NCBI GenBank assembly: GCA_030583785.1
Contig: CP129475.1
Location: 914,209 to 978,208 of the forward strand
Origin: Candidatus Dojkabacteria bacterium
GTDB taxonomy: Bacteria; Patescibacteriota; Dojkabacteria; B142; OLB20
Length of the DNA: 64,000 bases
Reading direction: 5' to 3'
Shown here: positions 8,277-30,651 of the stretch, in pieces
Layout: every line of letters starts with the position of its first letter
Position numbering within the stretch: the first letter of the stretch is position 1
Notes under the pieces: model-generated
Seen by the model: the letters and a program-made list of their open reading frames with translations, nothing else
Told to the model about the DNA's origin: nothing
The model's database searches: none
Program-made: the position numbers and the translations under genes

Positions 8277-8317
8277 GATGATAAGTATAGATAAAAATCG
8301 ACCCACGAACTAAAACT

Positions 8318-12031: not shown

Positions 12032-12079
12032 GCTTACTTATCTACATCTGTTCTCTCTGAAGGCTTTTAGCGTTTAACC

Positions 12080-12108: not shown

Positions 12109-12124
12109 TTCCCAAAATGGGAAA
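12108..12124. promoter_or_regulatory. Inverted repeat TTTCCCA-aaa-TGGGAAA overlapping the predicted transcription start; candidate antitoxin operator
   Basis: A perfect 7-bp inverted repeat with a 3-bp spacer sits immediately after the -10 element. Type II TA operons are typically autoregulated through such palindromes. Confidence 0.35.
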
Positions 12125-12150
12125 AGATAATCAATCATTAAAACTGAATA

Positions 12151-13658: not shown

Positions 13659-13659
13659 A

Positions 13660-14736
13660 ATGGAACATAATCAGAAATACATGCCAATACTACGATGGAA
13701 AAAAGCTGAGAGAGATGCATTAAAGTCGTTATCGGACGACCAAAAGAAAAACATCGTGCCGCTGTTTGAAATGGTTCCTAAAAGGATAACTGACCCCAAG
13801 AACAAGGACAACAAGTTACCAATGCCACCTAAACAGAATCTCGGCAATTGCATTGCATTCATACATAAAGAATTGACTGATATGAAAGTGCTATTGGACG
13901 TTACACATGTATATCCAAAGAAAGCAGAAGCGTTTGATGAAATGAGCATACCGACTACCTTATTTGGTAACAACCTTGTCCCAGTATTAAATTTGAATGA
14001 CATCAGAGCAGAGAACTTTAGCACAAATGTAAAAACCTTTTTTCGCAATCAAGGTATATGTCTAAGAGTAAAGTATAAGGAGATAGATGATAGTTTTTGG
14101 AATAGCGTAGACAACGAATTAACGGGCCTTGGCCTGACCAGACAGGATGTTGATTTTGTCATGGATTATGGGATTGCAAGCGTGAACCAAAAGGATGAAA
14201 TGCACAAGATAGTCAGTGATACCGACAAGACCACGGGATGGCGTAGCTATTTCTTTGCTAGTGGAGCTTTTCCTAAAGATTTACAAAAGATTACGCCTGG
14301 GAAAAAAGAGGAACTCGCACGAATCGACTGGACAAATTGGACTGACCTACTTAATCAAAACCCAGAACTACGATTACCGGGATTTAGCGACTACACGATT
14401 CAATATGCGGAGTATCACGAACCACCTGAAAAGGCTTTCCCAAGCTACAGCATAAGGTATACAGCACCAAATAAGTGGATTATTATGCGTGGACAAGGGT
14501 CAAATGCCCAAAATAGCGCTGGAGATAAACAATACTACGCGCATTCGGTCCTTTTAGTCATGGAAAGCGATTTCGCAGGTGCGAGTTGCTGTGAAAGCGA
14601 TAAAGACATCATCGCCCTAAGCCAAAATCCTGATGGCAAAATGGGAACACCCCAAAGCTGGATAAGAGCTGGGATAAGACATCACATTGTAGTTACGTTA
14701 AAGGGAGTAGAAAGCGTTTTGTCTTCTGGTAACTAG
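13660..14736 (+). CDS. Uncharacterised 358-aa protein, translationally coupled to higA (possibly Beta-protein/sce7725-like family)
   Basis: The ATG at 13660 lies 1 nt after the higA stop. N-terminus MEHNQKYMPILRWKKAERDALKSL. No catalytic motif was recognised. The family guess is from memory only. Confidence 0.45.
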   Translation: MEHNQKYMPILRWKKAERDALKSLSDDQKKNIVPLFEMVPKRITDPKNKDNKLPMPPKQNLGNCIAFIHKELTDMKVLLDVTHVYPKKAEAFDEMSIPTTLFGNNLVPVLNLNDIRAENFSTNVKTFFRNQGICLRVKYKEIDDSFWNSVDNELTGLGLTRQDVDFVMDYGIASVNQKDEMHKIVSDTDKTTGWRSYFFASGAFPKDLQKITPGKKEELARIDWTNWTDLLNQNPELRLPGFSDYTIQYAEYHEPPEKAFPSYSIRYTAPNKWIIMRGQGSNAQNSAGDKQYYAHSVLLVMESDFAGASCCESDKDIIALSQNPDGKMGTPQSWIRAGIRHHIVVTLKGVESVLSSGN

Positions 14737-15288
14737 ACACTCTCTTACAGAGGCTTTAAGCTCTCTTTCTGTAAAATTCTTCACCAACACTTCACAGATT
14801 TCCTTTTTATTTTTGCTATTCATGCCGTGAGCCAGATTTCTTCTTTTTAGGATATCAAGTGCTTCCGTTTTCCAGAGCATATTAGCAATAGTTAGCAAAT
14901 CCTGTGCTGGGTTTTCTTCTGCATTGCGCACACTAATAAGTTTAGGTTCATATTCGCTGTCTACTACTTTAGCTATAGTTATACCCCACCAATCTGGAAT
15001 CATTCTCAGTGCCTCAACCACATGACTTTTGCCAACCACAAGCGTAACTTTGTCGAAGATTAAGTTGTATGTGTTGGCCTGTGCAGAAAGTCTAAAAAGG
15101 TTATCCAAATCACCTTTTAGTTCATAACAGTGCATTATTCCATTAATAACTGCTATATCTGCTCTTACACTTCCATTGGAAATAGAAAACTCTGGAATAA
15201 TTGCCGTGTCAGGACCATTATATTTATTCTGAAGTTCCGACATTAACACCTTTCTTATTGTTTTGTCGCGAGTAATAAAATTATTCAT
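14698..15288 (-). CDS. sce7726-family-like protein (uncharacterised; usually paired with an sce7725-family gene)
   Basis: VRADIAVINGIMHCYELKGDLDNLFRLSAQANTYNLIFDKVTLVVGKSHVVEALRMIPDWWGI matches the remembered sce7726 signature (vRvDiAvvNG..hGyEiKsd.D.L.RL..Q...Y....D.vtLVvg..H...a....PdWWG). It converges on the upstream gene and overlaps it by 39 nt. Confidence 0.45.
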   Translation of the reverse strand: MNNFITRDKTIRKVLMSELQNKYNGPDTAIIPEFSISNGSVRADIAVINGIMHCYELKGDLDNLFRLSAQANTYNLIFDKVTLVVGKSHVVEALRMIPDWWGITIAKVVDSEYEPKLISVRNAEENPAQDLLTIANMLWKTEALDILKRRNLAHGMNSKNKKEICEVLVKNFTERELKASVRECLVTRRQNAFYSL

Positions 15289-15386
15289 ATAGCAGTTTTA
15301 CTTACAGTATAAATTTTTGCGATAATGACATCAACAATTTAAGCGCCTAACCCCATAAATTTCGGTTTATGGGTATGGACATAAGA

Positions 15387-15521
15387 CCTTGCGAGTATAG
15401 ACGGTTCCATCCGTCCAGATTTGCTCGCAAGGCCTTCAGGGGAAACTCTGATGCTGGATTGGGTGGGACCATTTTTGTGGTTTCCCAGTCCAGCATCGCT
15501 AAACGTATTTTATTTTTTAGC
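15387..15521 (+). promoter_or_regulatory. Highly structured leader: three consecutive hairpins immediately upstream of the ATG at 15531
   Basis: Hairpin 1: ccttgcgag (15387-15395) pairs with ctcgcaagg (15424-15432), with a nested gacgg/ccgtc stem. Hairpin 2: gatgctggattggg (15450-15463) pairs with cccagtccagcatc (15484-15497). Hairpin 3: gctaaa (15498-15503) pairs with tttagc (15516-15521) across a U-rich loop. Confidence 0.35.
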
Positions 15522-15530
15522 AACTGGACT

Positions 15531-16394
15531 ATGCGAATTCCATTTCCCAAAAGCAAGCCTGCAATTGCGGTAATAATAATCGTTGGTATTTTAGTACTCT
15601 GCTCAATCTGCTGCGTGTCAGCTATTCTTATTGCTCCTTCATTGCCTACAACACTTAAACTGACGTCTTCGCCGACGACTTCGTGGGACTCAAAGGAACC
15701 AACCCAGACAGTTAAATTCGATTGTACAAATGCTCAAAAAATCACGCTAAACGGCTCTCAGTTAAACGAAAAGGATAAAAATGAACTTTGTATTGGCAAT
15801 GGTTATAAACTCGATTTGCAGAATGGTCAGAACACTTTTACTTTTGTTGCTAGCCATGAGCGTGGTGACGTTGTGACAGTAGAATTAAAAATCAGTTTTG
15901 ACAAGAAAGCCTATGAGGATAGGTTGGCCGCCGAAGAAAAACAACGGCAAGAAGAGGAAGCTAAACGTAAGCAAAAAGAAGCCGATGACAAGGCAAAAGC
16001 CGAAGCTGAGGCTAACAAACCCAAAGTCGGTGACTCTCTTTTGGGGCCGAGTTACGAAGATATTAAAGCGGAGTATGAAAAGCAAAATAAACTTTCGAGT
16101 TACAAGGGTATGCAATATTTAGAGAGTTTAAAAGGTACCAAGATTGTCTGGGTGGCAGAAATAGGCGATGTCGACGAAGAATCGTTTGGAGATGATTTAT
16201 ACATCTCCTTGCTACTTTCGACTGGCATAGTTCAAAATAAACTAGCTTTTGTCGATAATCCCAAGCCCGAATACCTCAATTTGAATATGAAAACAGTAGT
16301 TAAGGTCACAGGCACGATAAAAGAGGTCAACACAAATTTTTTAGGACAAACAGTCTACATTAATGGTGACGCGACTTTCGAGGTTATCAACTAA
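15531..16394 (+). CDS. Membrane-anchored protein with a Lys/Glu-rich coiled-coil segment (hypothetical)
   Basis: Start set at the internal Met (MRIPFPKSKPAIAVIIIVGILVLCS TM helix). The central region reads KKAYEDRLAAEEKQRQEEEAKRKQKEADDKAKAEAEANK. The listed ORF start at 15369 spans the hairpin region. Confidence 0.45.
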   Translation: MRIPFPKSKPAIAVIIIVGILVLCSICCVSAILIAPSLPTTLKLTSSPTTSWDSKEPTQTVKFDCTNAQKITLNGSQLNEKDKNELCIGNGYKLDLQNGQNTFTFVASHERGDVVTVELKISFDKKAYEDRLAAEEKQRQEEEAKRKQKEADDKAKAEAEANKPKVGDSLLGPSYEDIKAEYEKQNKLSSYKGMQYLESLKGTKIVWVAEIGDVDEESFGDDLYISLLLSTGIVQNKLAFVDNPKPEYLNLNMKTVVKVTGTIKEVNTNFLGQTVYINGDATFEVIN

Positions 16395-16458
16395 CTACGT
16401 TTTATCTTAAATTGAACAAACGTGTGGAACGCCATGTGAGCAGCGGCTATAATGTGCT

Positions 16459-16800
16459 ATGGCTAGACCAACTAAACTCGACCAAATAACAGTCAAAAAA
16501 CTCGAAGAGGCATTTGCCGTAGGAGCAACTGTACCAGAAGCCTGTTTTAATGCGGGTATTAGTAAACAGACATACTACAACTGGACGGGAGAAAACCCTG
16601 AGTTATTGGACCGTTTTGAAGCATTGCAACAATCACCGATTTTGAGGGCTAGGAAGGCGGTATATGAGGGATTGGCAAATGACCCACATTTCGCATTAAA
16701 GTTCCTTGAAAGGAAGCTCAAGGGCGAATTTGGAATAAATCCAAACATAGCCGACACTGGTCACGAAATAAATATTGTCATTAGGAGGAAGCAAAATTAA
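16459..16800 (+). CDS. Phage terminase small-subunit-like HTH protein
   Basis: 113 aa; MARPTKLDQITVKKLEEAFAVGATVPEACFNAGISKQTYYNW...ENPELLDRFEALQ...KFLERK resembles phage TerS-like HTH proteins (PTKYTPEL...ICEAxGISxxTxYxWxxxNPEFxxxxxxAR...WxLERR). Confidence 0.45.
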   Translation: MARPTKLDQITVKKLEEAFAVGATVPEACFNAGISKQTYYNWTGENPELLDRFEALQQSPILRARKAVYEGLANDPHFALKFLERKLKGEFGINPNIADTGHEINIVIRRKQN

Positions 16801-16804
16801 ATAA

Positions 16805-17743
16805 ATGGAAAAGCCCGACATATTAGTATTTCGTGAGAAACGCTGGTTCCAACAATTTATTGGCAAAGAGTATGTTATCTACCACCGCCCTTTAAGCAAA
16901 GGGCAATCCGAATTGCACAGAGAGCTGACAGCTAGCCATGCAATTATGAAATCTCGGCAGTCAGAGGACGGGGAAAAGGAAAAATTTGTTATCTACGAAA
17001 TATTCCCGCATGAATTCCATCAATACTGCCAAGCCGAAATCGACAAACTTAGTGAGTGTAGAAAATCACAGGCCATTCAGACAAAAGAATTATTAGACCT
17101 GCTTGCCGCTGACTTTATCCAACACCAAAACACTGCGCCACTGGTCAACGAAGAGATTCTAGGGAGTTACAAGGCTAACCCTAAATTCGCGGCGGATTCA
17201 CCTAGCAATAGCCGCCATCGATTGAAGTTTAACGCGACCATGCGTCAATTGGAGCTTCAAGGGTATTTTAGGATTACTAACTTCGAGCTAGACGTATTCG
17301 CGACAGAAAAACCACTATCGCCTGAAAAAGCCCATGAACTAGAAAAGAAACCCGACCACAAAACAAAAACCGACTATCTACCTGCCGCTTACAGCAACTA
17401 CAAAATTAAATATCTTAGAGAATTTTCCGAATACGTCAGAAATGGCTATGGGAAAGAAACTGTGGAAATAGAGTTTGACCCTGAAAGTGGAGAAATCTGG
17501 TATGACGGCAAAAGTCGAAGTGTCGTCGGCAAGACTAGCCATTCCTACAAAGTTATAGCCGAATTTGCACTAGGCAAAAGCAGTGTTGAGATTAAGCAAT
17601 TATTTCCTGTTCAAAACGATAGTGATTTTAGACATGAGCTTGCGAAAGAGGTACGCAGGAAGATGGGTTTGTCAGCACAGCAGTTGAGAAATAAAGATGG
17701 AAACTTTATTTTGCAAAATGTTAGCGTAGCACCTAAAAAGTAA
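16805..17743 (+). CDS. Hypothetical protein (312 aa)
   Basis: ORF lying 5 nt after the TerS-like gene. No motif was recognised. Confidence 0.45.
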   Translation: MEKPDILVFREKRWFQQFIGKEYVIYHRPLSKGQSELHRELTASHAIMKSRQSEDGEKEKFVIYEIFPHEFHQYCQAEIDKLSECRKSQAIQTKELLDLLAADFIQHQNTAPLVNEEILGSYKANPKFAADSPSNSRHRLKFNATMRQLELQGYFRITNFELDVFATEKPLSPEKAHELEKKPDHKTKTDYLPAAYSNYKIKYLREFSEYVRNGYGKETVEIEFDPESGEIWYDGKSRSVVGKTSHSYKVIAEFALGKSSVEIKQLFPVQNDSDFRHELAKEVRRKMGLSAQQLRNKDGNFILQNVSVAPKK

Positions 17744-17986
17744 TTAGTTCTATCCCTACTTTTTCCCGCTTTTTTCCTAAGAATCCTACTTGATAGTTGG
17801 GATAGTGATTATGTGGAAAACACAGATATAAACTACAACGGCGAACCAATACGAAACCTACCAGCACTAGTTAAGGCTGTCCAGGTGGAAACCGCTAAAC
17901 GCTCGAGGACCAAACCCACCAAGGCTCTTTCAAAAAAACATAAATATCGAATGAAAGACAAGCTCGGAGAATATATAATGTAGTTA

Positions 17987-19627
17987 ATGAATGATGAGAA
18001 CCCACTTGAACAAGCACAGTACAAAGAGGCATTACTAAAATACGCCCACGCTTACACGCTCAAAAAGCAGAAAAATAAAAGCGAGAAACAACTTTCCGAT
18101 TCTAAACGCTACTATGTTATCTACGCCCGCAAATCCACCGAGGATGATAAACGACAAGTGCAATCCATAGAGGACCAAATCGAACAATGTCAGAAGTTTG
18201 CTAAAAGGGAGAATTTAGAGGTAGTTGATATTGTCCAAGAAGACAAAAGTGCAAAAACCGCTGGTAGACGTCCGAAATTTGCGGCAATGTTGGAACGGTT
18301 AAGGAAAGGTGATTTATACAACAGTATCCTGGCATGGCATCCAGACCGTTTAGCGCGCAATATGAAGGAAAGTGGAGAGATACTGGACCTGCTCGATAAC
18401 GACATTATTGTCGACCTTAAATTTCCATCTTACTCATTCAACAATGATGCTGCGGGCAAAATGACTCTAAGTATTTTGTTCGCGATGGCAAAGGAATTTT
18501 CCGACAAGTTATCAGAGGATACGAAGCGCGGTATTCGTAAAAAGATTCGCGAAGGTAAATATTCAGGCACAGGCAAACGTGGTTATATGGTGAACAAGCA
18601 CGAATATTTTAGACCCGATGACAGCAACTTCGCAATATATCAAAAGGCATGGCAGGAATACAGTAGTGGCAAAACGCAAAGTGAAATTATCCGCGGCTTA
18701 AAGGAACAAGGTGAGAAAATTTCCACAAATGGTATGTCAGAATACTTCCAAGACCCTTTTGTAGCTGGCATTTATACTTACGGTGAGCAGGTAGTTGACC
18801 TCGAAAAAGTAGACCCTAAATTTACGCCTATGATAGGTCCCAAGGAGTTTTTAATGGCACAAAAGATAAACAGGCCTAATCCACGCGGTTGGTGCATGAA
18901 CGATGAATTCAAACCACTAAATGACCTAGTCTTGTGTGCTGATTGTGGCAACCCAATGATTGCTGGTTTGAGTGAAGGTAATCGTTATCGATACCTAAAC
19001 CTGACTTGTAGCAATCGGGCTTGTAAGGAGAAAAGGCGAGAGAAAAAGATTAAACCAGTATCCAACACCATACGCGCATTCGAGATAATCGACTTTGCCC
19101 GTAGAGTGTTTGATGAATTGCTAAATATTGACCAAGCTACTTACGACAAGGCCAAGAAAAAGTATTTCACCGAACGCAGTGCGGTCATTAAAGGATTGGT
19201 TGCAGAGTCTGCAAAGTTGAAAGCTAGCAAATCCAAACTCGAAACTAAGTCCTCCAAACTAAGCGACCAGATACTCGAAAAGCACAGTGAAGATGTCAAA
19301 CAAAAGTTCTCAGAGGAATTTACAAGCGTGCTTGCGCAGATTAGAAATATTGACGCAAGTTTAGTTACCTTGGAACAAAAAAAGCGGGATTTGGAATTTG
19401 AAATCGAAGATGAATTTCCTGACTTCAAGACGTTTCTGAACTTCTTTGAAAACATATCGGCCACAATAGAATCCACCGATAATGCCTATCTTGTCGACCA
19501 ACTAGTGAAATTGGTATTTCTGAACCTAACTGTAAGTGAGAAAAAGGTTGTTAAATATACCCTTCGCGAGCCTTTCAAAACCTATGAGAACCTGAATTTC
19601 CTTGTTGGGGTGGTTGACAGGACTTGA
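17987..19627 (+). CDS. Large serine recombinase (integrase)
   Basis: Resolvase catalytic domain YVIYARKSTEDDKRQVQSIEDQ with the nucleophile Ser. The 546-aa length and a Cys-rich recombinase/zinc-ribbon region (CADCGNPM...CSNRAC) fit a large serine recombinase. Its 3' end overlaps the tRNA-His 3' end. Confidence 0.85.
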   Translation: MNDENPLEQAQYKEALLKYAHAYTLKKQKNKSEKQLSDSKRYYVIYARKSTEDDKRQVQSIEDQIEQCQKFAKRENLEVVDIVQEDKSAKTAGRRPKFAAMLERLRKGDLYNSILAWHPDRLARNMKESGEILDLLDNDIIVDLKFPSYSFNNDAAGKMTLSILFAMAKEFSDKLSEDTKRGIRKKIREGKYSGTGKRGYMVNKHEYFRPDDSNFAIYQKAWQEYSSGKTQSEIIRGLKEQGEKISTNGMSEYFQDPFVAGIYTYGEQVVDLEKVDPKFTPMIGPKEFLMAQKINRPNPRGWCMNDEFKPLNDLVLCADCGNPMIAGLSEGNRYRYLNLTCSNRACKEKRREKKIKPVSNTIRAFEIIDFARRVFDELLNIDQATYDKAKKKYFTERSAVIKGLVAESAKLKASKSKLETKSSKLSDQILEKHSEDVKQKFSEEFTSVLAQIRNIDASLVTLEQKKRDLEFEIEDEFPDFKTFLNFFENISATIESTDNAYLVDQLVKLVFLNLTVSEKKVVKYTLREPFKTYENLNFLVGVVDRT

Positions 19628-19682
19628 ACCTGCGGCATCCAGTGCCACAAACTGGCGCTCTACCGACTGAGCTACAACCACC
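19605..19682 (-). tRNA. tRNA-His (anticodon GTG), CCA encoded
   Basis: Reverse complement GGTGGTTGTAGCTCAGTCGGTAGAGCGCCAGTTTGTGGCACTGGATGCCGCAGGTTCAAGTCCTGTCAACCACCCCA forms a cloverleaf. The anticodon loop is TTGTGGC (GTG), and the usual His-specific extra 5' G / C73 arrangement is present. Confidence 0.85.
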
Positions 19683-19829: not shown

Positions 19830-21260
19830 ATGGATAATCAAAAAGCAGATATTGGATTTATTGGACTGGCTGTAATGGGACAGAATCTGGTGCAAAATAT
19901 CGCCTCTAAAGGCTTCTCTGTCGCTGTCTATAATAGAACTGCTGCTATAACCAGAGAGTATATCGAAACTGTCGATTCTGAGAATATTTCTCCTGCTTAT
20001 TCCTTATCTGATTTATGTAATTCGATAAAATCACCAAAAAGGATCATGCTTATGGTCAAAGCAGGAGAAGCTGTTGACGAAGTTATCGATCAATTACTGC
20101 CAAATCTTCACAAAGGAGATGCATTGTTAGATATGGGTAATTCCAATTACAAAGATACGCAAAGACGAACGCACCAATTAACCGAAAAGGGGATTCTCTA
20201 TTCTGGTGTAGGTGTTTCAGGCGGAGAAGAAGGTGCCTTAAATGGTCCGAGTATTATGTTTGGAGGCTCTAAAGAGTTGTTTACTGAAGTTGAAGCGCTT
20301 ATAAAAAGTATTTCTGCTATGGATTTTCAGGGAGCTGCTACACTTACCTATGTTGGGCCGGACGGAGCAGGTCACTATGCCAAGATGGTGCATAACGGAA
20401 TCGAATATGCCATGATGCAGGCGATTTCTGAGGCGTATTTTCTGCTTAGAGATGTTTTCCACAAAGATCCCTCAGAAATCGCCGCAGTATTCGCTAATCT
20501 AAATGAAGGTCCTCTCAATTCCTATCTCATACAAATAACTGCTGATGTGCTTAACAAGCGAGACGATCTTACCGAAGGATTCTTAATAGATAAGATTCTC
20601 GATGTCGCGGAACAAAAAGGAACCGGCTCTTGGGTTTCTATCTCTGCCCTAGAGAATGGAACTGCACTAAATATTCTCACCGAAGCGGTCTTTGCACGCA
20701 GTCTGTCTGCAGACAAACAAACAAGGATCAAACTTGCTGAATTATCAACCAAGAACGAGCTTGAAAAAAATTCACGAGACAAAAACTTGCCAGATGACAA
20801 GCAACTGCATAAACTCGTCGAGGATTCGTTGCTTGTTTCGTTTTATTTGGCCTTTATCCAAGGATTTCACTTGTTAGCTAAGGCTGAAGCAGAAAACAAC
20901 TGGCAGATTAATCTTTCTGAACTGACAAGAATCTGGCAAGGGGGGTGCATCATTAGGGCAGAGCTTCTTAAAGACCTAAAAAGATATACAGAGACAAAGG
21001 CTGTACTTATTGAAAATGAAGAATTGTTTAAGATGATTAACGGTAAAATTCCGTCACTTCGAGAACTGGCACTAATGGCGACATCGCATGCTTTGCCCTT
21101 GCCGGTAATGCAAAACAGTTTGCTTTATTTCGACAGCATGATAAATCCCAATTTACCTACCAATTTAATCCAGGGTCTGCGAGATTATTTTGGAGCGCAT
21201 ACATATAAACGAACTGACAGAGAAGGAATCTTCCATACAAACTGGGACGATCAGAACTAA
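19830..21260 (+). CDS. gnd: 6-phosphogluconate dehydrogenase (decarboxylating)
   Basis: The N-terminal Rossmann segment IGFIGLAVMGQNLVQNIASKGFSVAVYNRT is present, with the Gnd catalytic and C-terminal domains over the full 476-aa length. Confidence 0.9.
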   Translation: MDNQKADIGFIGLAVMGQNLVQNIASKGFSVAVYNRTAAITREYIETVDSENISPAYSLSDLCNSIKSPKRIMLMVKAGEAVDEVIDQLLPNLHKGDALLDMGNSNYKDTQRRTHQLTEKGILYSGVGVSGGEEGALNGPSIMFGGSKELFTEVEALIKSISAMDFQGAATLTYVGPDGAGHYAKMVHNGIEYAMMQAISEAYFLLRDVFHKDPSEIAAVFANLNEGPLNSYLIQITADVLNKRDDLTEGFLIDKILDVAEQKGTGSWVSISALENGTALNILTEAVFARSLSADKQTRIKLAELSTKNELEKNSRDKNLPDDKQLHKLVEDSLLVSFYLAFIQGFHLLAKAEAENNWQINLSELTRIWQGGCIIRAELLKDLKRYTETKAVLIENEELFKMINGKIPSLRELALMATSHALPLPVMQNSLLYFDSMINPNLPTNLIQGLRDYFGAHTYKRTDREGIFHTNWDDQN

Positions 21261-21282
21261 AGGCTGCGGATATGTTCAAGCA
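21255..21282. repeat. Left copy of a 28-bp perfect direct repeat (aactaaaggctgcggatatgttcaagca) flanking the CRISPR-Cas cassette
   Basis: Identical 28-mer at 21255-21282 and 29750-29777. The left copy contains the gnd codon AAC plus stop TAA and abuts the truncated terminal CRISPR repeat. Confidence 0.75.
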
Positions 21283-23611
21283 ACAGTAGAAATCTCTTAT
21301 AAGGAATAAGGTTATTCATAAGCTGAAAAAGGTCGCAGAAATCTACAACAGTAGAAACCTCTTATAAGGAATAAGGAGGAGAGGTATCAGTCGCTCAAGT
21401 CATCTACAACAGTAGAAATCTCTTATAAGGAATAAGAATCTGGCAGTTGCGTTAGACAATACGATCTACAACAGTAGAAATCTCTTATAAGGAATAAGAA
21501 TAAATTATTAATTACCCACCATGAGAATCTACAACAGTAGAAATCTCTTATAAGGAATAAGTTTTAATTATTAGCGAATAAGTATGGATCTACAACAGTA
21601 GAAATCTCTTATAAGGAATAAGCTAGTAAATTTCCTGATATATTTTACAGCATCTACAACAGTAGAAATCTCTTATAAGGAATAAGTCATATTTATAGAA
21701 TACACACTTATTATCTACAACAGTAGAAATCTCTTATAAGGAATAAGCTCGTAACAGATATGTTGACAGCTCTAATCTACAACAGTAGAAATCTCTTATA
21801 AGGAATAAGTCCATAAATCAAATTACTAACATCTCTATCTACAACAGTAGAAATCTCTTATAAGGAATAAGATGTTGTTCGCCATAGTTTTCTAAAATCT
21901 ACAACAGTAGAAATCTCTTATAAGGAATAAGAGTAGACAAGTTTCGTGACGATGCAGAGTATCTACAACAGTAGAAATCTCTTATAAGGAATAAGTGCAA
22001 ACTTCAATTTTCACTTCAACATTTATCTACAACAGTAGAAATCTCTTATAAGGAATAAGATATATATATATTGAGGTTTATTCTTTAAATCTACAACAGT
22101 AGAAATCTCTTATAAGGAATAAGTACTTGGATTTTTATAGTTAACGCATTTATCTACAACAGTAGAAATCTCTTATAAGGAATAAGTGATGAGATAGCAA
22201 TGTTTGCAGGAATTATCTACAACAGTAGAAATCTCTTATAAGGAATAAGGCTACATTCTTATTCATTCTCAGAATTATCTACAACAGTAGAAATCTCTTA
22301 TAAGGAATAAGAAATCAAATAGTTTTTGGTATCTGTTTATCTACAACAGTAGAAATCTCTTATAAGGAATAAGTTCGCGACGATGCAGAGGCAAAAATTA
22401 TCTACAACAGTAGAAATCTCTTATAAGGAATAAGACAAGTATATCAGACCGACGGGACAAAATCTACAACAGTAGAAATCTCTTATAAGGAATAAGATTC
22501 TGCCAGTACCTTCTCAATTAATCCATCTACAACAGTAGAAATCTCTTATAAGGAATAAGACTGGAGAGTTTACTGGACAGGTTAATCTACAACAGTAGAA
22601 ATCTCTTATAAGGAATAAGATCACAGACACAGTTTCGCTTTAGTATCTACAACAGTAGAAATCTCTTATAAGGAATAAGATCACTGTATATAGAGCTGTT
22701 ACTGAATCTACAACAGTAGAAATCTCTTATAAGGAATAAGCGTATTTATACACCGACGGTTCCTTGGATCTACAACAGTAGAAATCTCTTATAAGGAATA
22801 AGTGCATGGTTTTTTCCTAAATAACTAAAATCTACAACAGTAGAAATCTCTTATAAGGAATAAGATTGGAAGATGTTTCAGCAAGATTTCGAATCTACAA
22901 CAGTAGAAATCTCTTATAAGGAATAAGGCTATTGGTAAAAAAGCTTAATCATAATATCTACAACAGTAGAAATCTCTTATAAGGAATAAGTTAGGCGTGT
23001 GTTATCCACATTTGAAATCTACAACAGTAGAAATCTCTTATAAGGAATAAGAGCAATAGACTGGGGAGGATATTCCTAATCTACAACAGTAGAAATCTCT
23101 TATAAGGAATAAGCATTATTTCTATCAATTTCAATGTTTATATCTACAACAGTAGAAATCTCTTATAAGGAATAAGATTCTGTTGCCGTCTTCAAGTTCG
23201 GCAAATCTACAACAGTAGAAATCTCTTATAAGGAATAAGCTTATTATTATTTAGCCATTGAATTTGATCTACAACAGTAGAAATCTCTTATAAGGAATAA
23301 GTGGAATATATTTTATCCTCTTATATGATCTACAACAGTAGAAATCTCTTATAAGGAATAAGAATGGATATATTAATTAATAACTAACGGATCTACAACA
23401 GTAGAAATCTCTTATAAGGAATAAGAGAAATAAAAGAGGGAGCAATCTTAATCTACAACAGTAGAAATCTCTTATAAGGAATAAGTTAGAGTTTATACGA
23501 AGTTTGCACATCGAATCTACAACAGTAGAAATCTCTTATAAGGAATAAGTCATACTAGTCTTGTTAATCCTAACAAATCTACAACAGTAGAAATCTCTTA
23601 TAAGGAATAAG
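21281..23611 (-). CRISPR. Type V-A CRISPR array: 38 repeats (one truncated terminal, 37 full) of 35 nt, 37 spacers of 26-29 nt
   Basis: Plus-strand repeat is ATCTACAACAGTAGAAATCTCTTATAAGGAATAAG. Its reverse complement ends ...AGAUUUCUACUGUUGUAGAU, the Cas12a crRNA 5' handle and pseudoknot. The leader and cas genes lie on the high-coordinate side, so transcription is on the minus strand. The distal repeat (21339-21373) carries one SNP, and the terminal repeat (21281-21310) lacks 5 nt. Confidence 0.95.
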
Positions 23612-23809
23612 AGCCATTTTCTTGATATAAAAGGAGATTCGATACAACCGATATTTACCGGGACGGATTCATATCATATTAAGAATAATGGGAAAAGCCT
23701 TAATTATCAACCTTATTGACGAATAGTATGGCTCGTCTGCTTAAAAATTAAGACTGAGGTTTGTTTTCCTTAGAAACGATTTATACCGTTAACTTGTCAA
23801 AGAGCTATT
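23612..23809 (-). promoter_or_regulatory. CRISPR leader (AT-rich, about 198 bp) between cas2 and the first repeat
   Basis: AT-rich non-coding stretch in the canonical position cas2-leader-array. It contains TTGATA and TATTCT/TAATAT hexamers in the transcript orientation. Confidence 0.55.
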
Positions 23810-24091
23810 CTAATCAAAGTATACCACATCCTCCTCTTCGTAATGTGCAGCACCATACTTGCGGATCTTCTTTTGGCAAGCTTCACATATCTCCATTACA
23901 AGGATATGATCTGTCAAATCAGCTTTTGTCATATGCTTTTTTTCGATACCCTCTATAACCAATCTTAATAGTCGTTTGCTATTGCGTATCTCGTAAACAG
24001 AGTACTGCAAAGCATGACCAAACTTTTTAAGGAACTTAGAGAATCTGGTTCTCCTTTTATTATCAGCGATATCGTATGTGACTAGAATCAT
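23810..24091 (-). CDS. cas2: CRISPR-associated endoribonuclease Cas2
   Basis: 93 aa with N-terminus MILVTYDIADNKRRTRFSKFL (Cas2 signature). It overlaps cas1 by 4 nt. Confidence 0.9.
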   Translation of the reverse strand: MILVTYDIADNKRRTRFSKFLKKFGHALQYSVYEIRNSKRLLRLVIEGIEKKHMTKADLTDHILVMEICEACQKKIRKYGAAHYEEEDVVYFD

Positions 24092-25041
24092 TTGTATATA
24101 TATTGTTTAAAATGATATCTGTTTGGATCCATTATATGTTTATAAAAATTCTTAATATATGTATAAATATCTTCACGATTTCTCATTAATTCTTCAAAGA
24201 ACATATTAGTATATTTTCTATGGAAATCTTTCTTGATTAAGAATTCTCCATCTTTGAAATAGAAATCTTTCTCATTAATCTGACCAAGGTTCCAAGCTTT
24301 TACGAGCTTATAATCAATAATTGGGCGTAAAGGTTCCATTACATCGCAAGACAATGATTTCCTAATGAAAAATGGTTTATGATAGTAACCCATATAAGTA
24401 TCAAAGCCAAACAGTCTTAGTAACGAGTCAACATAGTTAAATAAATATGTGTATCCAATATCTAACAACAAGTTTGGAATATCCTCCTTTGTTCTGGGTG
24501 TTCTTCGATACCACTTCAGATTGTCAAACATCCGATTGAAATAACCCTTAGCCGCATTTCCTTCGAATCCAAGCATTGATTCTGTACTTTTTGCATTTGT
24601 TATGCCGTTGATTGAAGCAATATCTGTAATAACAATTCCTGTTCTTGTCTTTTGGAGAGCATTGTATTGATTCTGGACCTTATTGAGGACCAAGTTTCTA
24701 CTAATCTCTAAAGCAAATGAATCATTATGGTGATACTGTTTCTTTCTAAGGATGTAATTCCCTTCTGCTGCTGATGTGATTTCGGCATAAGTTTTTAAAG
24801 AGTCATTAAGCAGAAAAAGAGATATCCCATGTTCTCTCATCTGTTTAATCAATACACTAGTCAAACTTAATTCGCCGATATAATAGATTGCAAATATTAA
24901 GTGTGTTGAAACTTGATGAGTGAATCTATCATCTCTATATAGGCAGATATTGCTGTTCCTAAATTTGAGTTTGTTATCTAACCCTGGTCTATTACCAACA
25001 TGCAGTATCTTTTTTTCTTTGAAATCATTTAACTGTAGCAT
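24088..25041 (-). CDS. cas1: CRISPR-associated integrase Cas1
   Basis: 317 aa with Cas1 motifs, including the conserved His/Glu region (GFDTYMGYYHK...FFIRKSLSCDVMEPLRPIID). Confidence 0.9.
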   Translation of the reverse strand: MLQLNDFKEKKILHVGNRPGLDNKLKFRNSNICLYRDDRFTHQVSTHLIFAIYYIGELSLTSVLIKQMREHGISLFLLNDSLKTYAEITSAAEGNYILRKKQYHHNDSFALEISRNLVLNKVQNQYNALQKTRTGIVITDIASINGITNAKSTESMLGFEGNAAKGYFNRMFDNLKWYRRTPRTKEDIPNLLLDIGYTYLFNYVDSLLRLFGFDTYMGYYHKPFFIRKSLSCDVMEPLRPIIDYKLVKAWNLGQINEKDFYFKDGEFLIKKDFHRKYTNMFFEELMRNREDIYTYIKNFYKHIMDPNRYHFKQYIYK

Positions 25042-25589
25042 GTAGCCTTGTCACATAATGTAATGTAAATACAGTTCGAACATTTATTTGCTGAAACTGG
25101 TTTCGTCAACTGTGAAGGGTTATATTGTAGTATCGATTTCGTTAACAATCTCAAACTTACCTGTTCATATGCTGTCGGCAAAGGGATTGGATACCGTTTA
25201 TTGTCTATTAGTGAGTGGATGCACATTGACTTAACTTTATAACCCATTTCGGTTAAACAGACATATTGGGCATGCAGTTGGAGAATATATCCTGCGTAGA
25301 TCTTCTTCACTTTCCGTTTCCTTTCGACCAGAAGACCGGTAGATTTGTCGAAGATGTCAATCTTTCCAATTAAGTTATAGGTCTCACTATATATTGCTGT
25401 ACTCTTAAGTATGTTCTTTCTCGAGGAATACTTTTTTGTGTCTACTGCTTCGTGAGCGATTGTACCAAGTAACTGTGGAGTGTCCTGATATAAAGACTTG
25501 TCGAAAGATTCAAATATGGCGTGCAAATATAAAGAATAGGGGCAAAAGATGAAATCATTAAGTTTAGATATCTGTATAGCTCTTACCAT
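25029..25589 (-). CDS. cas4: CRISPR-associated exonuclease Cas4 (RecB-like nuclease, 4Fe-4S)
   Basis: An N-terminal Cys (FIFCPYSLYL), GTIAHE, GKIDIFD and a C-terminal CxxCxxxxxC cluster (CSNCIYITLC) are present. The 186-aa size is typical for type V-A Cas4. Confidence 0.85.
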   Translation of the reverse strand: MVRAIQISKLNDFIFCPYSLYLHAIFESFDKSLYQDTPQLLGTIAHEAVDTKKYSSRKNILKSTAIYSETYNLIGKIDIFDKSTGLLVERKRKVKKIYAGYILQLHAQYVCLTEMGYKVKSMCIHSLIDNKRYPIPLPTAYEQVSLRLLTKSILQYNPSQLTKPVSANKCSNCIYITLCDKATCYS

Positions 25590-25662
25590 ACAGATATTAT
25601 ACTATAAGACACTATTATTCCGAAGCCTATAGTTGATATGTTTTTATGGAACTATTTCTGAA

Positions 25663-28600
25663 TTATTCTCTTGATGCAAAATCATCCCATTCAAGATTTG
25701 AGATATACAAATCATTCCAACTTGGTGTTGCCGACTGACCATTAACTTGCATGAAACGTTTTACTTTTCTAATCATTACAACCCCTTTGCGTGCAATATT
25801 ATAAGCACCATTTTCATCGCCATTCTTTGGTAAATGCTTCCCAAATACTTCAGCCTTTCTACTGTCAAAGAAGGGTTCAACAGGCGAGAGTATGAAATCG
25901 TTCTCATCACCATCGGAATCGACTTTAGTGTTTCTTATTTGACAAATAAGTCCGAAATAGTAGATTAAGCTACGGAATAATTTAGAGTTATTCTTGTCTT
26001 CTTCATCAATGTCTTTAATTTGCTTTAGTAGGTCCTTGTTTATATCTACTTCATATTCTTCTAATACCTCTTTAATGCTTATAGTGATATTGTCATAGTG
26101 TTCGTATGCACCTTTATTATTATTCAGTTTTTTATCCCATTTGTATCGTTCAACATTTGAGCAGACAGTCCAGATATGTTTCTTTGGATACTCTTTAGCT
26201 TTAGGATAGAATTTTTTTAGATCATATGTAAATTTGAAATGGTCTTTTGTGTCATCGTACTCAATACTATCAAAATTTAATAGATCGATCTTTGCCATTT
26301 TTGCATTGGTATTTTTTAAATACAGATTTGGCCTCCAACCGGTAAGCGGATCAATCTTAGAAGTATACGCTGCTTGAGTATAAAAAATAATACCTGTTTG
26401 TTTACCTATTTCGTCAAAACTCCTAAATGGTGAGGTAAGTTGATATGCTTTGTGAATACCGCCTAACTCAGAGCGGTTATTATGAGTCTTGTCAGCTAGG
26501 TAATTAAGTTTCTCGATTAATCCTTTTTCCAGTTGTTGGTAAGTACTTTTTTCAAATCCACTTCGAATTTGTTTAAACCTCATATTCAAATCTTCCATAA
26601 CGATTATTGCTCCATGCTTAATTGCTAGGTCAGATATTTTTTTGACTAACAACGAAACATAACCTCGTTTTAGATCCTTTATCTTTTGAATCTCTTGCCA
26701 ATCTTTACGATCTCTTTCTCTATCGACTGCCCGGTCTGATAATAGTTTCTTGAAGTCAATGCCTTTGAGGTTATTTAATGATCCACTTTCAATTACCTCT
26801 CCATCTTGTGTAATCACTGAATAGTAGGCCAAGTGCTTTTCGCCTCTGTCAACACCAATGATGTTTATTGAATCATTACTTGCTAAGAGCTTACACACTA
26901 GATCGTTTACCCTAGTAACTCCCTTGTTGATCCGATTAAGTGTGATTGGAACATGGAAAAAGTACTTATTTTCTGAATACCTTGTGTTTATTACTCTCTT
27001 ATTTCCTTTTTTATCTACCCGCTCGCCCAGCTTGTCTTTGTCGGTCTTCGGTCTAAAGAACAGCTCTGCTTGACCATTTAGTTTAAAACGGTAATTATTA
27101 TCAAGATTCTCTTGTGAGAATAATTCTTCAAAGTAAATTGTGTGTAAGTTCTTCGTTCCTCTGCTCTCTTTTGAGAAATCTTTATTGTAAATTTGAAATA
27201 AATATAATTCACCTTTACTATTGCTTTCAATTATTTGACTCTCGGCAAAGGGTGTAAACCAAACCTTGTATCCTTTCTGGTTTAATTCTTTGTAGAATTC
27301 GTCAACGCTGTCATATTTTTCGGAATCTTTTATCAAAGAATAGTCAAAATATGCTGTACTTGGATAGCATTCGAGGAACTGTTTGCAGAAATCTATCCAT
27401 TTCTTTACAGCCTCTCTATGCAAAGTTTCATTTCCTCCTAACTTTAAGTACTCTTTCTGGAAGACTTTTATATAGTATTTTTCATCGTCACTATTAACTT
27501 CACCTCTTAAAACAGATCTTGATAGATCCTCTTTAAGATAAATACGGTTGTTTATCTCGTATATTTCTTTTGTGATTTTTAATGGATTAAGTAGATCACC
27601 TATAGAAGAAGTTTTCGTTAGAACATAATCATCATCAGAGTTTTGAAAGTGATTCGCAACCTCTTTTAATTGAGTTGTTGTCTTTGGTATGTTTGTTACT
27701 ACATCCTTCACAAATTTGTAATTCAGCAGTTCATAATGATTCGGTTCTACTTCAGCTTCTTGAGTATCTTTTGCCTTAGTAAATAATTTGTTGTAACCTT
27801 TCTTCATTATCCCTAGAAAGAACTCGTGATTTCTTCTAAGAATTACAGTTGAGTATGATGCCACCTTATTCTTATCCCAGCCATCAGCTAGAGTTGGATT
27901 GTCGAAGTTAAGCTTCCACTTTTCTTCGCTATATGGTTTTCTTGTTAAATAATTTCTAACCTTGTTATATGGTTGGACAATTTCCTCGTATGCGTTTGCG
28001 TAAAATTCCAGATAACCAATATCTGGTTCTGTATAGAATGTATCTAACATACTGTCGTATTCAGTTAACCAATTGCGTTTTTTTTCTAATGCAAAGTACA
28101 TCGCCATCTGATAGATATGTAAAACTGAATCCAGATAGTCTTTAATAATTTTTTTTGTATCTTTATTAATTCTAAATTCCTCTAGAAGTTTTACAAAAAC
28201 TGGTTCACTCTTACTGTAATCAATTTGATTTTCTTGATCTCGCTGTTTGTTAACAATCAATGAGTCAAACTCATACTTAAAGATGTCAACAAACTGCAAC
28301 CAATTTGGTTGTCCTGCTTGTGTTGCGGAAGTACCACTCTTTTCGTAGTACCGATCTTTCCATATTTCGTTCTCATCACCAATTGCAGTTAGAGCAGTTT
28401 TAATATCTTTTAGGGTAATGAACTGTGGAAAACGATATGTTTCTCCAACCTTATTGATACCTTCCACTGCATTTTCTTTCAGTGTATTGTAGAGCGCTTC
28501 TTCTAGTTGGCTTTTGTCGTTGATCCATCTATGAAGAATAGTATTGAAAGCTTCTTTGCTAATTAAGATTCCACCGATGTCATATTCTTCAGTACTCCTA

Positions 28601-29673
28601 AAGAATTTATCGAGTAGTTTGTACAGATTCTTAATTCTTATCTTTGCAGATTCATGAAAAGTTAGGAGCATATCAAATAGCTCGTTTTCGTTGTCAAGCT
28701 CATCAATAAATTTCTCCTTTTCACTAAGTAGTTGTTTATCGAGTTTCTTCAAAAATGATATCTTTTTATCACGATTGTTTTGTCGATATTCATTAATAAC
28801 TTCGTTTACACCGATAACTTTTTCACCATTTTCTAGTGTTTTCCCACCAATTAGCTCGTTATATGTATTCAAACCCTCTTGTGTTAGGCATCGATTATAG
28901 TAAACGATACTTATTAATTGATTTGCAGCGATCTTAAGTTCTCGGTGCGGTTCTAAGATACTTCCAACATCTTGTGACTCAAATGTGAGGATATTCTCGA
29001 TGAAACGATCAAGATTATGATCAATAATTCTTGTAGCTAGAGCAGTACTCGTTCCGTCAGATTTATAAAAATTCTCTCTTGTTGCAAAGAATTTTTTAAA
29101 ATATCCTGTAAAACCTTTCCAACCATCGAAGATTGAAATAATCTCTCCCGTATCTTTATTAATTAACTTTGTTTCTTGATCGTCTCCATAACTTTCTTTA
29201 AGTATCTGGAAGACTTTTTCTTCAAAGAGGATATTAAGATCTGTTTTTTTTAGCTTGAGGTGGGTATATCTTTTTTCTGCCCATTTCTTACCAGTATTAT
29301 TGAATGACGCTATTACTTGAGATCTTAATTCCTGCCTTGCTTTTTTTAATTTATCGAATAGCTTTTTATCTTTTTTATTAGTTTTGTATTCTTTATAGGT
29401 TTTGAGATACTCTTCCAGCCCATCTATTTCGAAGTTGTTCAGTGATTCTTGAATAAATTCTCTATGTAGCTTGTCAAAGTAAGGTTTGGTTCTCTCATAG
29501 GCAAGCTTTCGATTTTTATCAATCTCTACAATGTTATTCTCCATTAACATGTTTTCTGTATTACCAACAGGTTTTAATTCAAATCTTAGTGTTTTTGAAA
29601 GTGGATATAGATTAGTAAAGTCACTGAAGGGGTGCTTAGACATATTAGTATCGTGAAGAATATTGCTTCCCAT
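25663..29673 (-). CDS. cas12a: Cas12a (Cpf1) type V-A effector nuclease
   Basis: The N-terminus ...MSKHPFSDFTNLYPLSKTLRFELKPVG is the Cas12a hallmark. RuvC-I (IGVDRGEKHLAY), RuvC-II (IVMEDLNMRFKQ), RuvC-III (GDENGAYNIARKG) and the Nuc region (ILSPVEPFFDSR) are all present. The likely true start is the internal Met at 29643, which would give 1326 aa. Confidence 0.95.
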   Translation of the reverse strand: MGSNILHDTNMSKHPFSDFTNLYPLSKTLRFELKPVGNTENMLMENNIVEIDKNRKLAYERTKPYFDKLHREFIQESLNNFEIDGLEEYLKTYKEYKTNKKDKKLFDKLKKARQELRSQVIASFNNTGKKWAEKRYTHLKLKKTDLNILFEEKVFQILKESYGDDQETKLINKDTGEIISIFDGWKGFTGYFKKFFATRENFYKSDGTSTALATRIIDHNLDRFIENILTFESQDVGSILEPHRELKIAANQLISIVYYNRCLTQEGLNTYNELIGGKTLENGEKVIGVNEVINEYRQNNRDKKISFLKKLDKQLLSEKEKFIDELDNENELFDMLLTFHESAKIRIKNLYKLLDKFFRSTEEYDIGGILISKEAFNTILHRWINDKSQLEEALYNTLKENAVEGINKVGETYRFPQFITLKDIKTALTAIGDENEIWKDRYYEKSGTSATQAGQPNWLQFVDIFKYEFDSLIVNKQRDQENQIDYSKSEPVFVKLLEEFRINKDTKKIIKDYLDSVLHIYQMAMYFALEKKRNWLTEYDSMLDTFYTEPDIGYLEFYANAYEEIVQPYNKVRNYLTRKPYSEEKWKLNFDNPTLADGWDKNKVASYSTVILRRNHEFFLGIMKKGYNKLFTKAKDTQEAEVEPNHYELLNYKFVKDVVTNIPKTTTQLKEVANHFQNSDDDYVLTKTSSIGDLLNPLKITKEIYEINNRIYLKEDLSRSVLRGEVNSDDEKYYIKVFQKEYLKLGGNETLHREAVKKWIDFCKQFLECYPSTAYFDYSLIKDSEKYDSVDEFYKELNQKGYKVWFTPFAESQIIESNSKGELYLFQIYNKDFSKESRGTKNLHTIYFEELFSQENLDNNYRFKLNGQAELFFRPKTDKDKLGERVDKKGNKRVINTRYSENKYFFHVPITLNRINKGVTRVNDLVCKLLASNDSINIIGVDRGEKHLAYYSVITQDGEVIESGSLNNLKGIDFKKLLSDRAVDRERDRKDWQEIQKIKDLKRGYVSLLVKKISDLAIKHGAIIVMEDLNMRFKQIRSGFEKSTYQQLEKGLIEKLNYLADKTHNNRSELGGIHKAYQLTSPFRSFDEIGKQTGIIFYTQAAYTSKIDPLTGWRPNLYLKNTNAKMAKIDLLNFDSIEYDDTKDHFKFTYDLKKFYPKAKEYPKKHIWTVCSNVERYKWDKKLNNNKGAYEHYDNITISIKEVLEEYEVDINKDLLKQIKDIDEEDKNNSKLFRSLIYYFGLICQIRNTKVDSDGDENDFILSPVEPFFDSRKAEVFGKHLPKNGDENGAYNIARKGVVMIRKVKRFMQVNGQSATPSWNDLYISNLEWDDFASRE

Positions 29674-29749
29674 TATATCATGGGAAAAAATATATAAACA
29701 AACTAAAAAATGTTTAGGTTGGTGAGGGTAAGAATCACATTCTTAGGTC

Positions 29750-29777
29750 AACTAAAGGCTGCGGATATGTTCAAGCA
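29750..29777. repeat. Right copy of the 28-bp direct repeat; encodes the C-terminal MLEHIRSL-stop of the VanW-like gene on the minus strand
   Basis: Identical to 21255-21282. Its reverse complement reads ATG CTT GAA CAT ATC CGC AGC CTT TAG. Confidence 0.75.
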
Positions 29778-30651
29778 TAGATTGTTTATATTCCTCAATC
29801 ATTTCCTGTGGGTCTGTGTACGATATTAATCGAATGTCTTTGTTTGCCATAATATATGCTCCGATGCTTTCGCCTTTGTAGGCGCTAGGATGATCGTTTC
29901 TATAAGTAAGCACGATTCTAATCTTTAGACCTTCAAGCTCTTTAATGTTTTTTATGGCGGGATTTAGTGTAAAGCCATAGTCTTGTCCTCCTCCTGAACT
30001 GATTTTTATGACTGTGTAGCCATAGCCTCGATTACTATCTTTGTAAGTATGCGACCAGTCGGCGTGAGGAGCTCGATCTCCACGGGCAAAAACAAACATA
30101 GGTATACCGTATCTTTCCTTAAACTGATTATTGGCATTGTCCATCATTTGTCCGAGCGCACTTGTACTCCAGCACAAACCGGAACCGAAGAAATAGCCGT
30201 TTTGCGGTCTTACATATCCGTTTCTTGGATTTAAAGAAAGATAGCCGTCTGCGATGACCCGAATTCTATTACCAGGAGCTAAGGTAGGCATGCGATTTAA
30301 TTCTCTGACGCCTGCTGCGGCATTTAAGTATTTCCCCCAGTAGTAGTCATTTTTGTGCAGTGGAAGTTCGGTGAAGGCAAACTGGTAGCTCAAAGAAGGA
30401 TCAATGCTTTCGCCGGCAACAGCAGGTAGGTTGTCGTCACTTGGAAATGCGTCTTCTGCAAAGATGATTCCGTTATCGCTATAGACGGCAAAGTTGTCTT
30501 TATAGGAGTCTTTCCCTTGATAAAACTGTGAGGCGATTCTTTGTCCAAGATTGAAAGTCGGACCCTGTTGAAACAATTTAATTCGTGCAGATACCGACAC
30601 AGGCTGTGCCAACAGTAAAGTAATTACTAACAGGAATTTCAGGATTTTCAT
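29752..30651 (-). CDS. Exported VanW-like domain protein
   Basis: Signal peptide MKILKFLLVITLLLAQPVSVSA. NGYFFGSGLCWSTSALGQ resembles the VanW GGGxCQxSTTLY motif. Confidence 0.45.
   Translation of the reverse strand: MKILKFLLVITLLLAQPVSVSARIKLFQQGPTFNLGQRIASQFYQGKDSYKDNFAVYSDNGIIFAEDAFPSDDNLPAVAGESIDPSLSYQFAFTELPLHKNDYYWGKYLNAAAGVRELNRMPTLAPGNRIRVIADGYLSLNPRNGYVRPQNGYFFGSGLCWSTSALGQMMDNANNQFKERYGIPMFVFARGDRAPHADWSHTYKDSNRGYGYTVIKISSGGGQDYGFTLNPAIKNIKELEGLKIRIVLTYRNDHPSAYKGESIGAYIMANKDIRLISYTDPQEMIEEYKQSMLEHIRSL

Follow-up and report, generated by a model that had tools for sequence, protein, structure and literature searches.

A type V-A CRISPR-Cas locus of a Candidatus Dojkabacteria bacterium was found to have been inserted as a unit between two convergent genes, with a target duplication of 26–28 bp, and both genes kept intact 3′ ends. 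The locus lies in a stretch of 64,000 nucleotides of contig CP129475.1, referred to here as the window, in which the inserted DNA occupies positions 21283-29749 (8,467 bp) plus the duplicated 28 bp. It is bounded by two exact copies of the 28-mer AACTAAAGGCTGCGGATATGTTCAAGCA, located at 21255-21282, where gnd (6-phosphogluconate dehydrogenase) ends, and at 29750-29777, where the gene of a 299-aa secreted hypothetical protein ends. No third copy was present in the window even when 3 mismatches were allowed, a match was obtained in 0 of 100 shuffled sequences, and the 28-mer was recovered also by a repeat-family scan of the window. When the third codon positions of the 299-aa gene were made degenerate in the 28-mer, 0 matches were obtained in viral, metagenome and genome collections, so that the 28-mer is not considered a common motif. 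The original prediction had proposed, from the perfect direct repeat, a precise insertion of the whole cas-array unit with duplication of a 28-bp target or att core, and the single-copy empty site that such an insertion predicts is indeed present in relatives.

Contigs with the empty site were found by looking up near-identical variants of both flanking proteins. In 15 contigs, which belong to 13 sequencing runs and display three junction variants, gnd and the 299-aa gene meet at just one 28-mer. The empty allele E (L022 and L023) reads gggacgatcag-(28-mer)-tagattg, with a gnd product of 476 aa and the ends of the two genes overlapping by 4 nt. The empty allele Y (L117-L126) reads gggacgactag-(28-mer or variant)-tagattg, with a gnd product of 474 aa and gene ends 2 nt apart; Y contigs contain either the canonical 28-mer or the variant AGCTAAAGGCTACGG.... 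Bases 7-28 of the left copy in the filled chromosome are non-coding remains of the 299-aa gene's 3′ end, which shows that the single-copy convergent junction was the ancestral state. The contigs of Logan are k=31 assemblies, and therefore a 28-bp repeat cannot collapse to produce empty-site contigs, which moreover have SNP (single-nucleotide polymorphism) haplotypes of their own. As to the filled site, both copies are found with identical junctions in the independent assemblies L001, L011, L016, L031 and L112. The left junction is found also in an OLB21 contig from NCBI (L015), and the exact proteins are on record also from candidate division WS6 bacterium OLB21. The occurrence, in the 5 runs SRR23332755, SRR23332757, SRR24881069, SRR34539589 and SRR36519112, of contigs that begin or stop exactly at the edge of the repeat indicates that both alleles coexist within one sample. 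One further contig (L019) shows a window-type gnd and continues with 'TA' into the empty path, which hints that the cassette-bearing haplotype also has an empty allele; its last 105 bp are common to both haplotypes, which makes it unphasable, and it was not used as support.

Concerning the flanking genes, the statements that the left copy carries the gnd stop codon and that the right copy encodes the end of the convergent gene were both correct: the gnd stop TAA is at 21258-21260, within the left copy, and the right copy holds the last 7 codons of the 299-aa gene, its stop and 2 nt of a Met codon (the reading frame ends in ...MLEHIRSL-stop). gnd was found on cassette-bearing and empty contigs alike. 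Its C-terminus is polymorphic, being either ...WDDQN-stop (476 aa, with the stop within the 28-mer) or ...WDN-stop/WDD-stop (474 aa, with the stop just 5′ of the 28-mer); these variants are located at 21249-21260 of the window, 11415-11431 of L112 and 3360-3376 of L117. In the 474-aa alleles, there is no overlap between the two convergent genes. On the other hand, the description of the right gene as VanW-like was not borne out, as the 299-aa protein gave no family match in Pfam or NCBIfam even at E ≤ 10. Homologues of this protein are confined to WS6/Dojkabacteria, and no relative was found in the GTDB species genomes, which do not include the host species itself. In WS6 OLB20, the genes that lie to the right of this one are arranged in the same order, and for this reason they are considered part of the core genome. 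The sole 'Van' family protein detected in the window was a VanY-type D-Ala-D-Ala carboxypeptidase (53166-54224).

The coordinates of the cassette, its flanks and the neighbouring islands are summarized in Table 1. All the open reading frames (ORFs) of at least 70 aa in the insert are cas genes, all are on the minus strand, and neither a recombinase nor a transposase was found among them, in agreement with the original prediction, as is the greater AT-richness of the interval (GC fraction 0.325 in the insert versus 0.391 in the rest of the window). Judging from its annotated features, the cassette is a minimal, self-contained type V-A locus, composed of an upstream region, cas12a-cas4-cas1-cas2, a leader and an array. 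The CRISPR repeat ends in the Cas12a handle TTTCTACTGTTGTAGAT and, when full, it folds as UCUAC-UGUU-GUAGA, i.e., as the hairpin of the CRISPR RNA (crRNA) with its 5-bp stem. Spacer lengths range from 25 to 30 nt, with a mode of 27 nt and 28 nt as the second commonest value. With respect to possible self-targeting, no spacer matched the window within 5 mismatches, and viral contigs (IMG/VR) gave 0 matches to the CRISPR repeat or to one spacer-derived pattern. Two spacers (21932-21960 and 22374-22399) have a common 17-nt core, CTCTGCATCGTC[A/G]CGAA, and therefore derive from overlapping sites of variant targets; the core had no match in the viral collection. In positions 8960-9000 of the OLB21 contig L015, which stops within the array, two CRISPR repeats contain homopolymer insertions (e.g., aaaatctctttataaagg), and this looks like assembly error rather than biology.

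Table 1. Location of the cassette, its flanking genes and the neighbouring islands in the 64-kb window
Feature	Coordinates	Strand	Remarks
Inner island	3929-8054		Second island; metallophosphatase, CYTH protein, three hypothetical genes
Defence island	8055-19605	+	11.5 kb, separate from the cassette, at the tRNA-His 3′ end; Mrr nuclease, MmeI-type restriction-modification enzyme, HigB/M78 peptidase, Beta protein, P4 cII-like gene
Large serine recombinase	17987-19627		546 aa, end of the defence island; ORF overlaps tRNA-His by 22 nt; 1.6 kb left of the left 28-mer
tRNA-His	19606-19681		
gnd (6-phosphogluconate dehydrogenase)	19830-21260	+	Left flanking core gene; Pfam 6PGD, NAD_binding_2; TIGR00873 535 bits (cutoff 427)
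Left 28-mer copy	21255-21282	.	Bases 7-28 non-coding (vestige of the 299-aa gene 3′ end)
Truncated terminal CRISPR repeat	21283-21310	-	Left end of the inserted DNA; 28/35 nt, without the first 7 nt (ATCTACA); adjoins the left 28-mer
CRISPR array	21283-23611	-	37 unique spacers (25-30 nt) among 38 repeats of 35 nt, of which one is truncated
Leader region	23612-23809	-	~200 bp between cas2 and the first repeat; assigned by position
cas2	23810-24091	-	PF09827, E = 3e-16
cas1	24088-25041	-	PF01867, E = 1e-48
cas4	25029-25589	-	PF01930, E = 3e-9
cas12a (cpf1)	25663-29673	-	TIGR04330 805 bits (cutoff 300); Pfam REC1, RuvC_1, NUC, PI
cas12a upstream region	29674-29749	-	76 bp, forms the right end of the insert; contains the small hairpin TAAGAAT-CAC-ATTCTTA, 4 nt away from that end
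Right 28-mer copy	29750-29777	.	Encodes the final codons and stop of the 299-aa gene
299-aa secreted hypothetical protein	29752-30651	-	Right flanking core gene; signal peptide

The first ATG of the cas12a ORF (29673) falls within a hairpin and the motif TGATATAAT, and the homologues start near ...FTNLY (window 29641-29690), so that the second ATG, at 29643, is the likelier one and possibly the true start of cas12a. The promoter of this gene probably sits in the 76-bp right end of the insert. A promoter scan of this upstream region gave weak promoter-like matches, and the scan for promoter and terminator was no better than in shuffled sequences.

The two ends of the insert are unrelated to each other, and there are no terminal inverted repeats. 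It had been observed that the truncated distal CRISPR repeat abuts the left copy, and this is so; in the transcribed orientation, the break of the repeat is located in the UGUU loop of the crRNA hairpin, and according to folding the truncated repeat plus the 28-mer cannot form that hairpin. The cut points of the insert are about 76 bp upstream of cas12a at one side and inside a repeat at the other. The left junction displays a 2-nt microhomology (CA) and the right junction none, the duplication being of 28 bp, or of 26 bp if the microhomology belongs to the insert. Neither the right-end 76 bp nor the 28-mer showed similarity to the CRISPR repeat (p = 0.86–0.99 versus shuffles, with p = 0.86 for the right end), and the possibilities of a degenerate repeat at the right end, or of a pseudo-repeat acting as the target, were rejected, as the alignments were not significant against shuffles. 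By inspection, the 28-mer has no palindromic or inverted-repeat arms, and the empty site folds without notable structure. No TTTV protospacer adjacent motif (PAM) is located 5′ of the 28-mer in the orientation of the array. The order right end (...ATTCTTAGGTC), 28-mer, left end (ACAGTAG...) is the junction expected of a circularised cassette; every contig with the exact Cas12a shows a chromosomal junction.

Another set of observations concerns the age of the cassette and its later history. The same two junctions are found in a second cassette-bearing lineage, X (L112-L116). The cassettes of the window lineage (W) and of X differ at 164 of 7,185 positions (2.3%), and the flanks differ by 2.4–3.8%. 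Because the divergence of the cassette is similar to that of the flanks, the insertion predates the W/X split, and it is old rather than recent. In haplotype X, the left copy contains a G at position 7 (AACTAAGGG...), as expected of an unconstrained vestige, and in haplotypes L030 and L002 the right copy contains an A at position 12, the identity between copies being in both cases 27/28. L030 shows only 2 differences from the window in the 7,185 cassette positions, and its right flank changes haplotype within 29743-29823, an interval that contains the repeat. The population is a mosaic in which haplotype tracts switch along the locus, a pattern that points to frequent short-tract homologous recombination. 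Within gnd, the patches 20720-20843 and 20484-20510 are hypervariable between strains (about 20 differences in 120 bp when the window is compared to L022), and in other strains there are stretches of a few hundred bp that resemble X or Y.

In neighbour-joining trees of both flanks, the empty allele E is placed outside, while the empty allele Y is nested among cassette-bearing lineages. The presence or absence of the cassette occurs in all four combinations with a TC/CT polymorphism located 3 bp to the left of the repeat, and likewise with the G/A at position 12 inside the repeat. Barring recurrent mutation, which at position 12 is made less likely by linked flank SNPs, this requires at least one further event at the repeat itself: the cassette may have been lost or regained precisely, or a crossover may have fallen within about 30 bp. 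The most economical reading is that the cassette was inserted once, long ago, and that recombination between its two copies of the 28-mer later deleted it precisely in the ancestor of Y.

Concerning relatives of the locus, the closest non-self Cas12a was 54% identical, and the named matches among the closest ones (42–50% identical) belonged all to phyla of the Candidate Phyla Radiation (CPR). From this distance and from the GC contrast, we infer that the cassette DNA is foreign. The exact Cas12a was found always at this one site. The loci of the closest Cas12a and of a second relative displayed no flanking repeats. In a survey of 80 further V-A loci from metagenomes, 27 could be evaluated because the sequence to their left and to their right was usable; 0 of these 27 displayed a flanking direct repeat of at least 17 bp, and the same scan recovers the 28-mer in the window. 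So, the bounded cassette looks like a one-off event and not like a general property of V-A loci.

The interpretation favoured here, to which as a whole a probability of about 0.55 can be assigned, is an illegitimate insertion of a foreign cassette, followed by its loss through host recombination between the 28-bp copies. The 8,467 bp of AT-richer DNA would have been inserted once into the 4-bp convergent overlap of gnd and the 299-aa gene, in an ancestor of the present Dojkabacteria population (candidate division WS6, CPR). Integration would have occurred without an element-encoded recombinase, by the joining of a linear fragment at a staggered break through end-joining or fill-in. What the insertion left after the gnd stop is a useless copy of the last 22 nt of the 299-aa gene. 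The cassette would then have been inherited, diverging along with its hosts, and the two 28-bp copies would later have served host recombination, either RecA-dependent or of the slippage type. In at least one sub-lineage, this would have deleted the cassette precisely, giving rise to the presence/absence polymorphism found in the same environments.

Illegitimate insertion is favoured over an att site used in trans, but several points weigh against it. Neither a donor nor an intermediate was found, and because of this the chemistry of integration is deduced from the footprint alone. Bacterial illegitimate insertions delete target DNA more often than they duplicate it. The interleaving of empty and filled haplotypes, with flanks shared into the repeat, would be expected also from repeated site-specific integration. 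The polarity of Y, i.e., loss versus independent gain, depends on midpoint-rooted trees of about 1–1.4 kb from a visibly recombining population. Finally, the analysis covers 64 kb of the genome, and a trans-acting recombinase may be located elsewhere.

Site-specific integration, in which the 28-mer would be an attP/attB core and a tyrosine-type recombinase would have acted in trans or would have been deleted since, is considered possible, if rather unlikely. The element could be either the cassette itself or a once larger one of which the cassette is the remnant CRISPR-Cas end, and it may still excise and re-integrate. That the repeat restores the 3′ ends of both flanking genes is typical of integrative elements, and the sharing of flank haplotypes by empty and filled alleles up to and into the repeat, together with the nested position of Y, agrees with this proposal. 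So do the variants at positions 7 and 12, which fit a fixed crossover between them, and the neighbourhood itself, which is an integration hot spot with a tyrosine-integrase-like gene in the lineage-X island next to gnd. However, the insert contains no recombinase, and no tyrosine integrase was found in the window; a 312-aa window ORF, considered as a hidden tyrosine integrase, was rejected as it showed no similarity to its positional counterpart, the integrase-like gene of lineage X. The nearby serine recombinase was also rejected as the integrase of the cassette, since it is part of the separate tRNA-His island and is absent from many cassette-bearing strains; in addition, serine recombinases leave no long core repeats. 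The lack of inverted-repeat arms in the 28-mer and of notable structure in the empty site counts weakly in the same direction, as cores vary. The collections searched yielded no further copy of either the 28-mer or the cassette, the element end within a CRISPR repeat is odd for an attP arm, and the left copy is already decaying in X.

A related proposal, regarded as improbable, is that the cassette would be a recombinase-less yet mobile module, which would repeatedly excise as a circle and re-integrate at the 28-bp site. Recombination may be carried out by the host, by a function that acts in trans or by the Cas1 of the cassette. The flank haplotypes common to empty and filled chromosomes into the repeat, and the interleaving of both states in the trees, are compatible with such a module. 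If it were real, CPR genomes would switch between having and lacking an entire adaptive-immune locus, independently of the genes at its flanks.

A Campbell-type event, in which a circular or episomal cassette would have recombined with the chromosome through about 28 bp of identity (provided, e.g., by a self-derived, spacer-like distal unit of the array), is judged very unlikely. It is true that 28 nt is the second commonest spacer length, that the 28-mer occupies the place of a next spacer directly after the last repeat, and that 28 bp slightly exceeds the shortest homology on which RecA-dependent recombination works in E. coli. But the 28-mer replaces the last 7 nt of the repeat rather than succeeding an intact one, there is no TTTV PAM 5′ of the matching chromosomal sequence in the orientation of the array, no repeat remnant is found on the other side, and no spacer matches the window. 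Furthermore, such an event needs a circle made solely of the CRISPR-Cas locus, of which there was no evidence.

Still less credible is a casposon-like self-integration by the own Cas1-Cas2(-Cas4) of the cassette, through staggered attacks 28 bp apart. The genes cas1, cas2 and cas4 are intact in the insert, and Cas1 integrases duplicate the DNA between the two sites attacked, i.e., the repeat in spacer integration and 14–15 bp in casposons. The duplication of 28 bp does not agree, however, with the 35-nt repeat of this system, the target resembles neither repeat nor leader, terminal inverted repeats and a polymerase B are both lacking, and none of the other 27 V-A loci evaluated has flanking repeats. 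We know of no case of Cas1-Cas2 integrating an 8-kb substrate. As to a chance repeat or an assembly artefact, the probability is negligible in view of the shuffling control, the many independent assemblies with both copies and the haplotypes proper to the empty-site contigs.

The footprint was also compared to those of known systems. Insertion of restriction-modification cassettes with long target duplication was reportedly described by Nobusato et al. in 2000 (Gene 259:99), and among known patterns this one is the closest to that observed here. In the study of Furuta, Abe and Kobayashi (2010, PMC2853133), the restriction-modification cassettes inserted in this way have no mobility genes, the repeats often span start or stop codons, the duplications (working threshold >30 bp) range in the cases reported from 46 to ~420 bp, and the insertions occur mostly in naturally competent species. 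As in those insertions, the present cassette is a compact defence unit shorter than 20 kb and devoid of mobility genes, its direct repeats align to one copy in an empty-site relative, its repeat spans the stop codon of a gene, and the insert has a GC content different from that of the genome. Unlike them, the cargo is CRISPR-Cas, the duplication of 28 bp is under the >30-bp threshold, and the host is a CPR bacterium. In the literature searched, no paper was found tying a long-target-duplication footprint to a CRISPR-Cas locus.

The microcin H47 island of E. coli, which is also a small cargo without a recombinase of its own, excises via its flanking repeats without RecA (Azpiroz & Lavina 2017, PMC5426353), and its excision and re-integration by host functions match the precise loss or gain deduced for the cassette. 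On the other hand, the repeats that flank H47 are long, do not match perfectly and comprise four homology blocks, and H47 excision was shown by PCR (polymerase chain reaction), while here it is deduced from population sequences. Integrative islands and prophages at gene 3′ ends resemble the cassette in that their repeats restore the ends of the target gene and attB is single-copy in empty strains, but the cassette has no integrase, its core has no inverted-repeat arms, and one of its ends is inside a CRISPR repeat. Compared to canonical type V-A loci of CPR bacteria, the gene order cas12a-cas4-cas1-cas2-array and the UCUAC-UGUU-GUAGA hairpin are the same, and the relatives also lie between housekeeping genes; the difference is the bounding repeat, absent from the evaluable relatives, with footprint and empty allele both preserved.

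Other types of element were considered and rejected. A DDE transposon does not agree with the absence of a transposase, the unrelated ends and a duplication of 28 bp rather than a short fixed one. A true casposon was discarded despite the presence of Cas1, as there is no family B polymerase, there are no inverted repeats, and the duplication is of 28 bp versus 14–15 bp. Elements exploiting Xer/dif (IMEX, pdif module) use a site of 28 bp in which a 6-bp centre separates two 11-bp arms that are partly palindromic; the length fits, but AACTAAAGGCT and ATGTTCAAGCA, the arms of the 28-mer, do not form inverted repeats when inspected. One of them agrees with the XerD arm of E. coli in 8 of 11 positions, probably by chance. 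A Tn7-like CRISPR-associated transposon was dismissed because the tnsB, tnsC and tniQ genes are absent from the insert, and so are Tn7 ends.

Three independent insertions surround gnd, namely the cassette and two islands to its left. The islands are nested and abut the 3′ end of tRNA-His, and cassette-bearing strains have both, one or none of them. The defence island, bounded by the 8-bp repeat TGGGGTGG, is missing from the cassette-bearing contigs L011, L012, L013, L015 and L030, and is for this reason considered independent of the cassette. L012, L015 and L022 lack the inner island, and at its joints an overlap of 10 bp is shared with the end of tRNA-His. At the same place, lineage X contains a different island, with a type I restriction-modification system, the tyrosine-integrase-like gene mentioned above and a serine recombinase 29% identical to that of the window. 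Apart from these islands, a protein of 2,038 aa is encoded at 41326-47442 of the window; it contains DUF2341 and seven Laminin_G_3 (concanavalin-like) repeats, and it belongs to a type of giant surface protein that is common in CPR genomes.

CRISPR-Cas loci move between genomes, but the footprint of their integration is, to our knowledge, almost never preserved. For the Cas12a locus described here, in a CPR bacterium, both the filled and the empty site are available, together with the two exact junctions. CRISPR-Cas is reported to be rare in CPR bacteria (PMC6509639). The present case suggests that a bare CRISPR-Cas unit needs neither its own transposase nor its own integrase to enter a streamlined genome, that it can do so without damage to two overlapping genes, and that the short duplication left behind makes the acquisition reversible. 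This would be a concrete way, open to testing, in which CRISPR-Cas could be gained and lost as frequently as it is within species, and it would extend the long-target-duplication mode of defence-gene mobility from restriction-modification systems to CRISPR-Cas.

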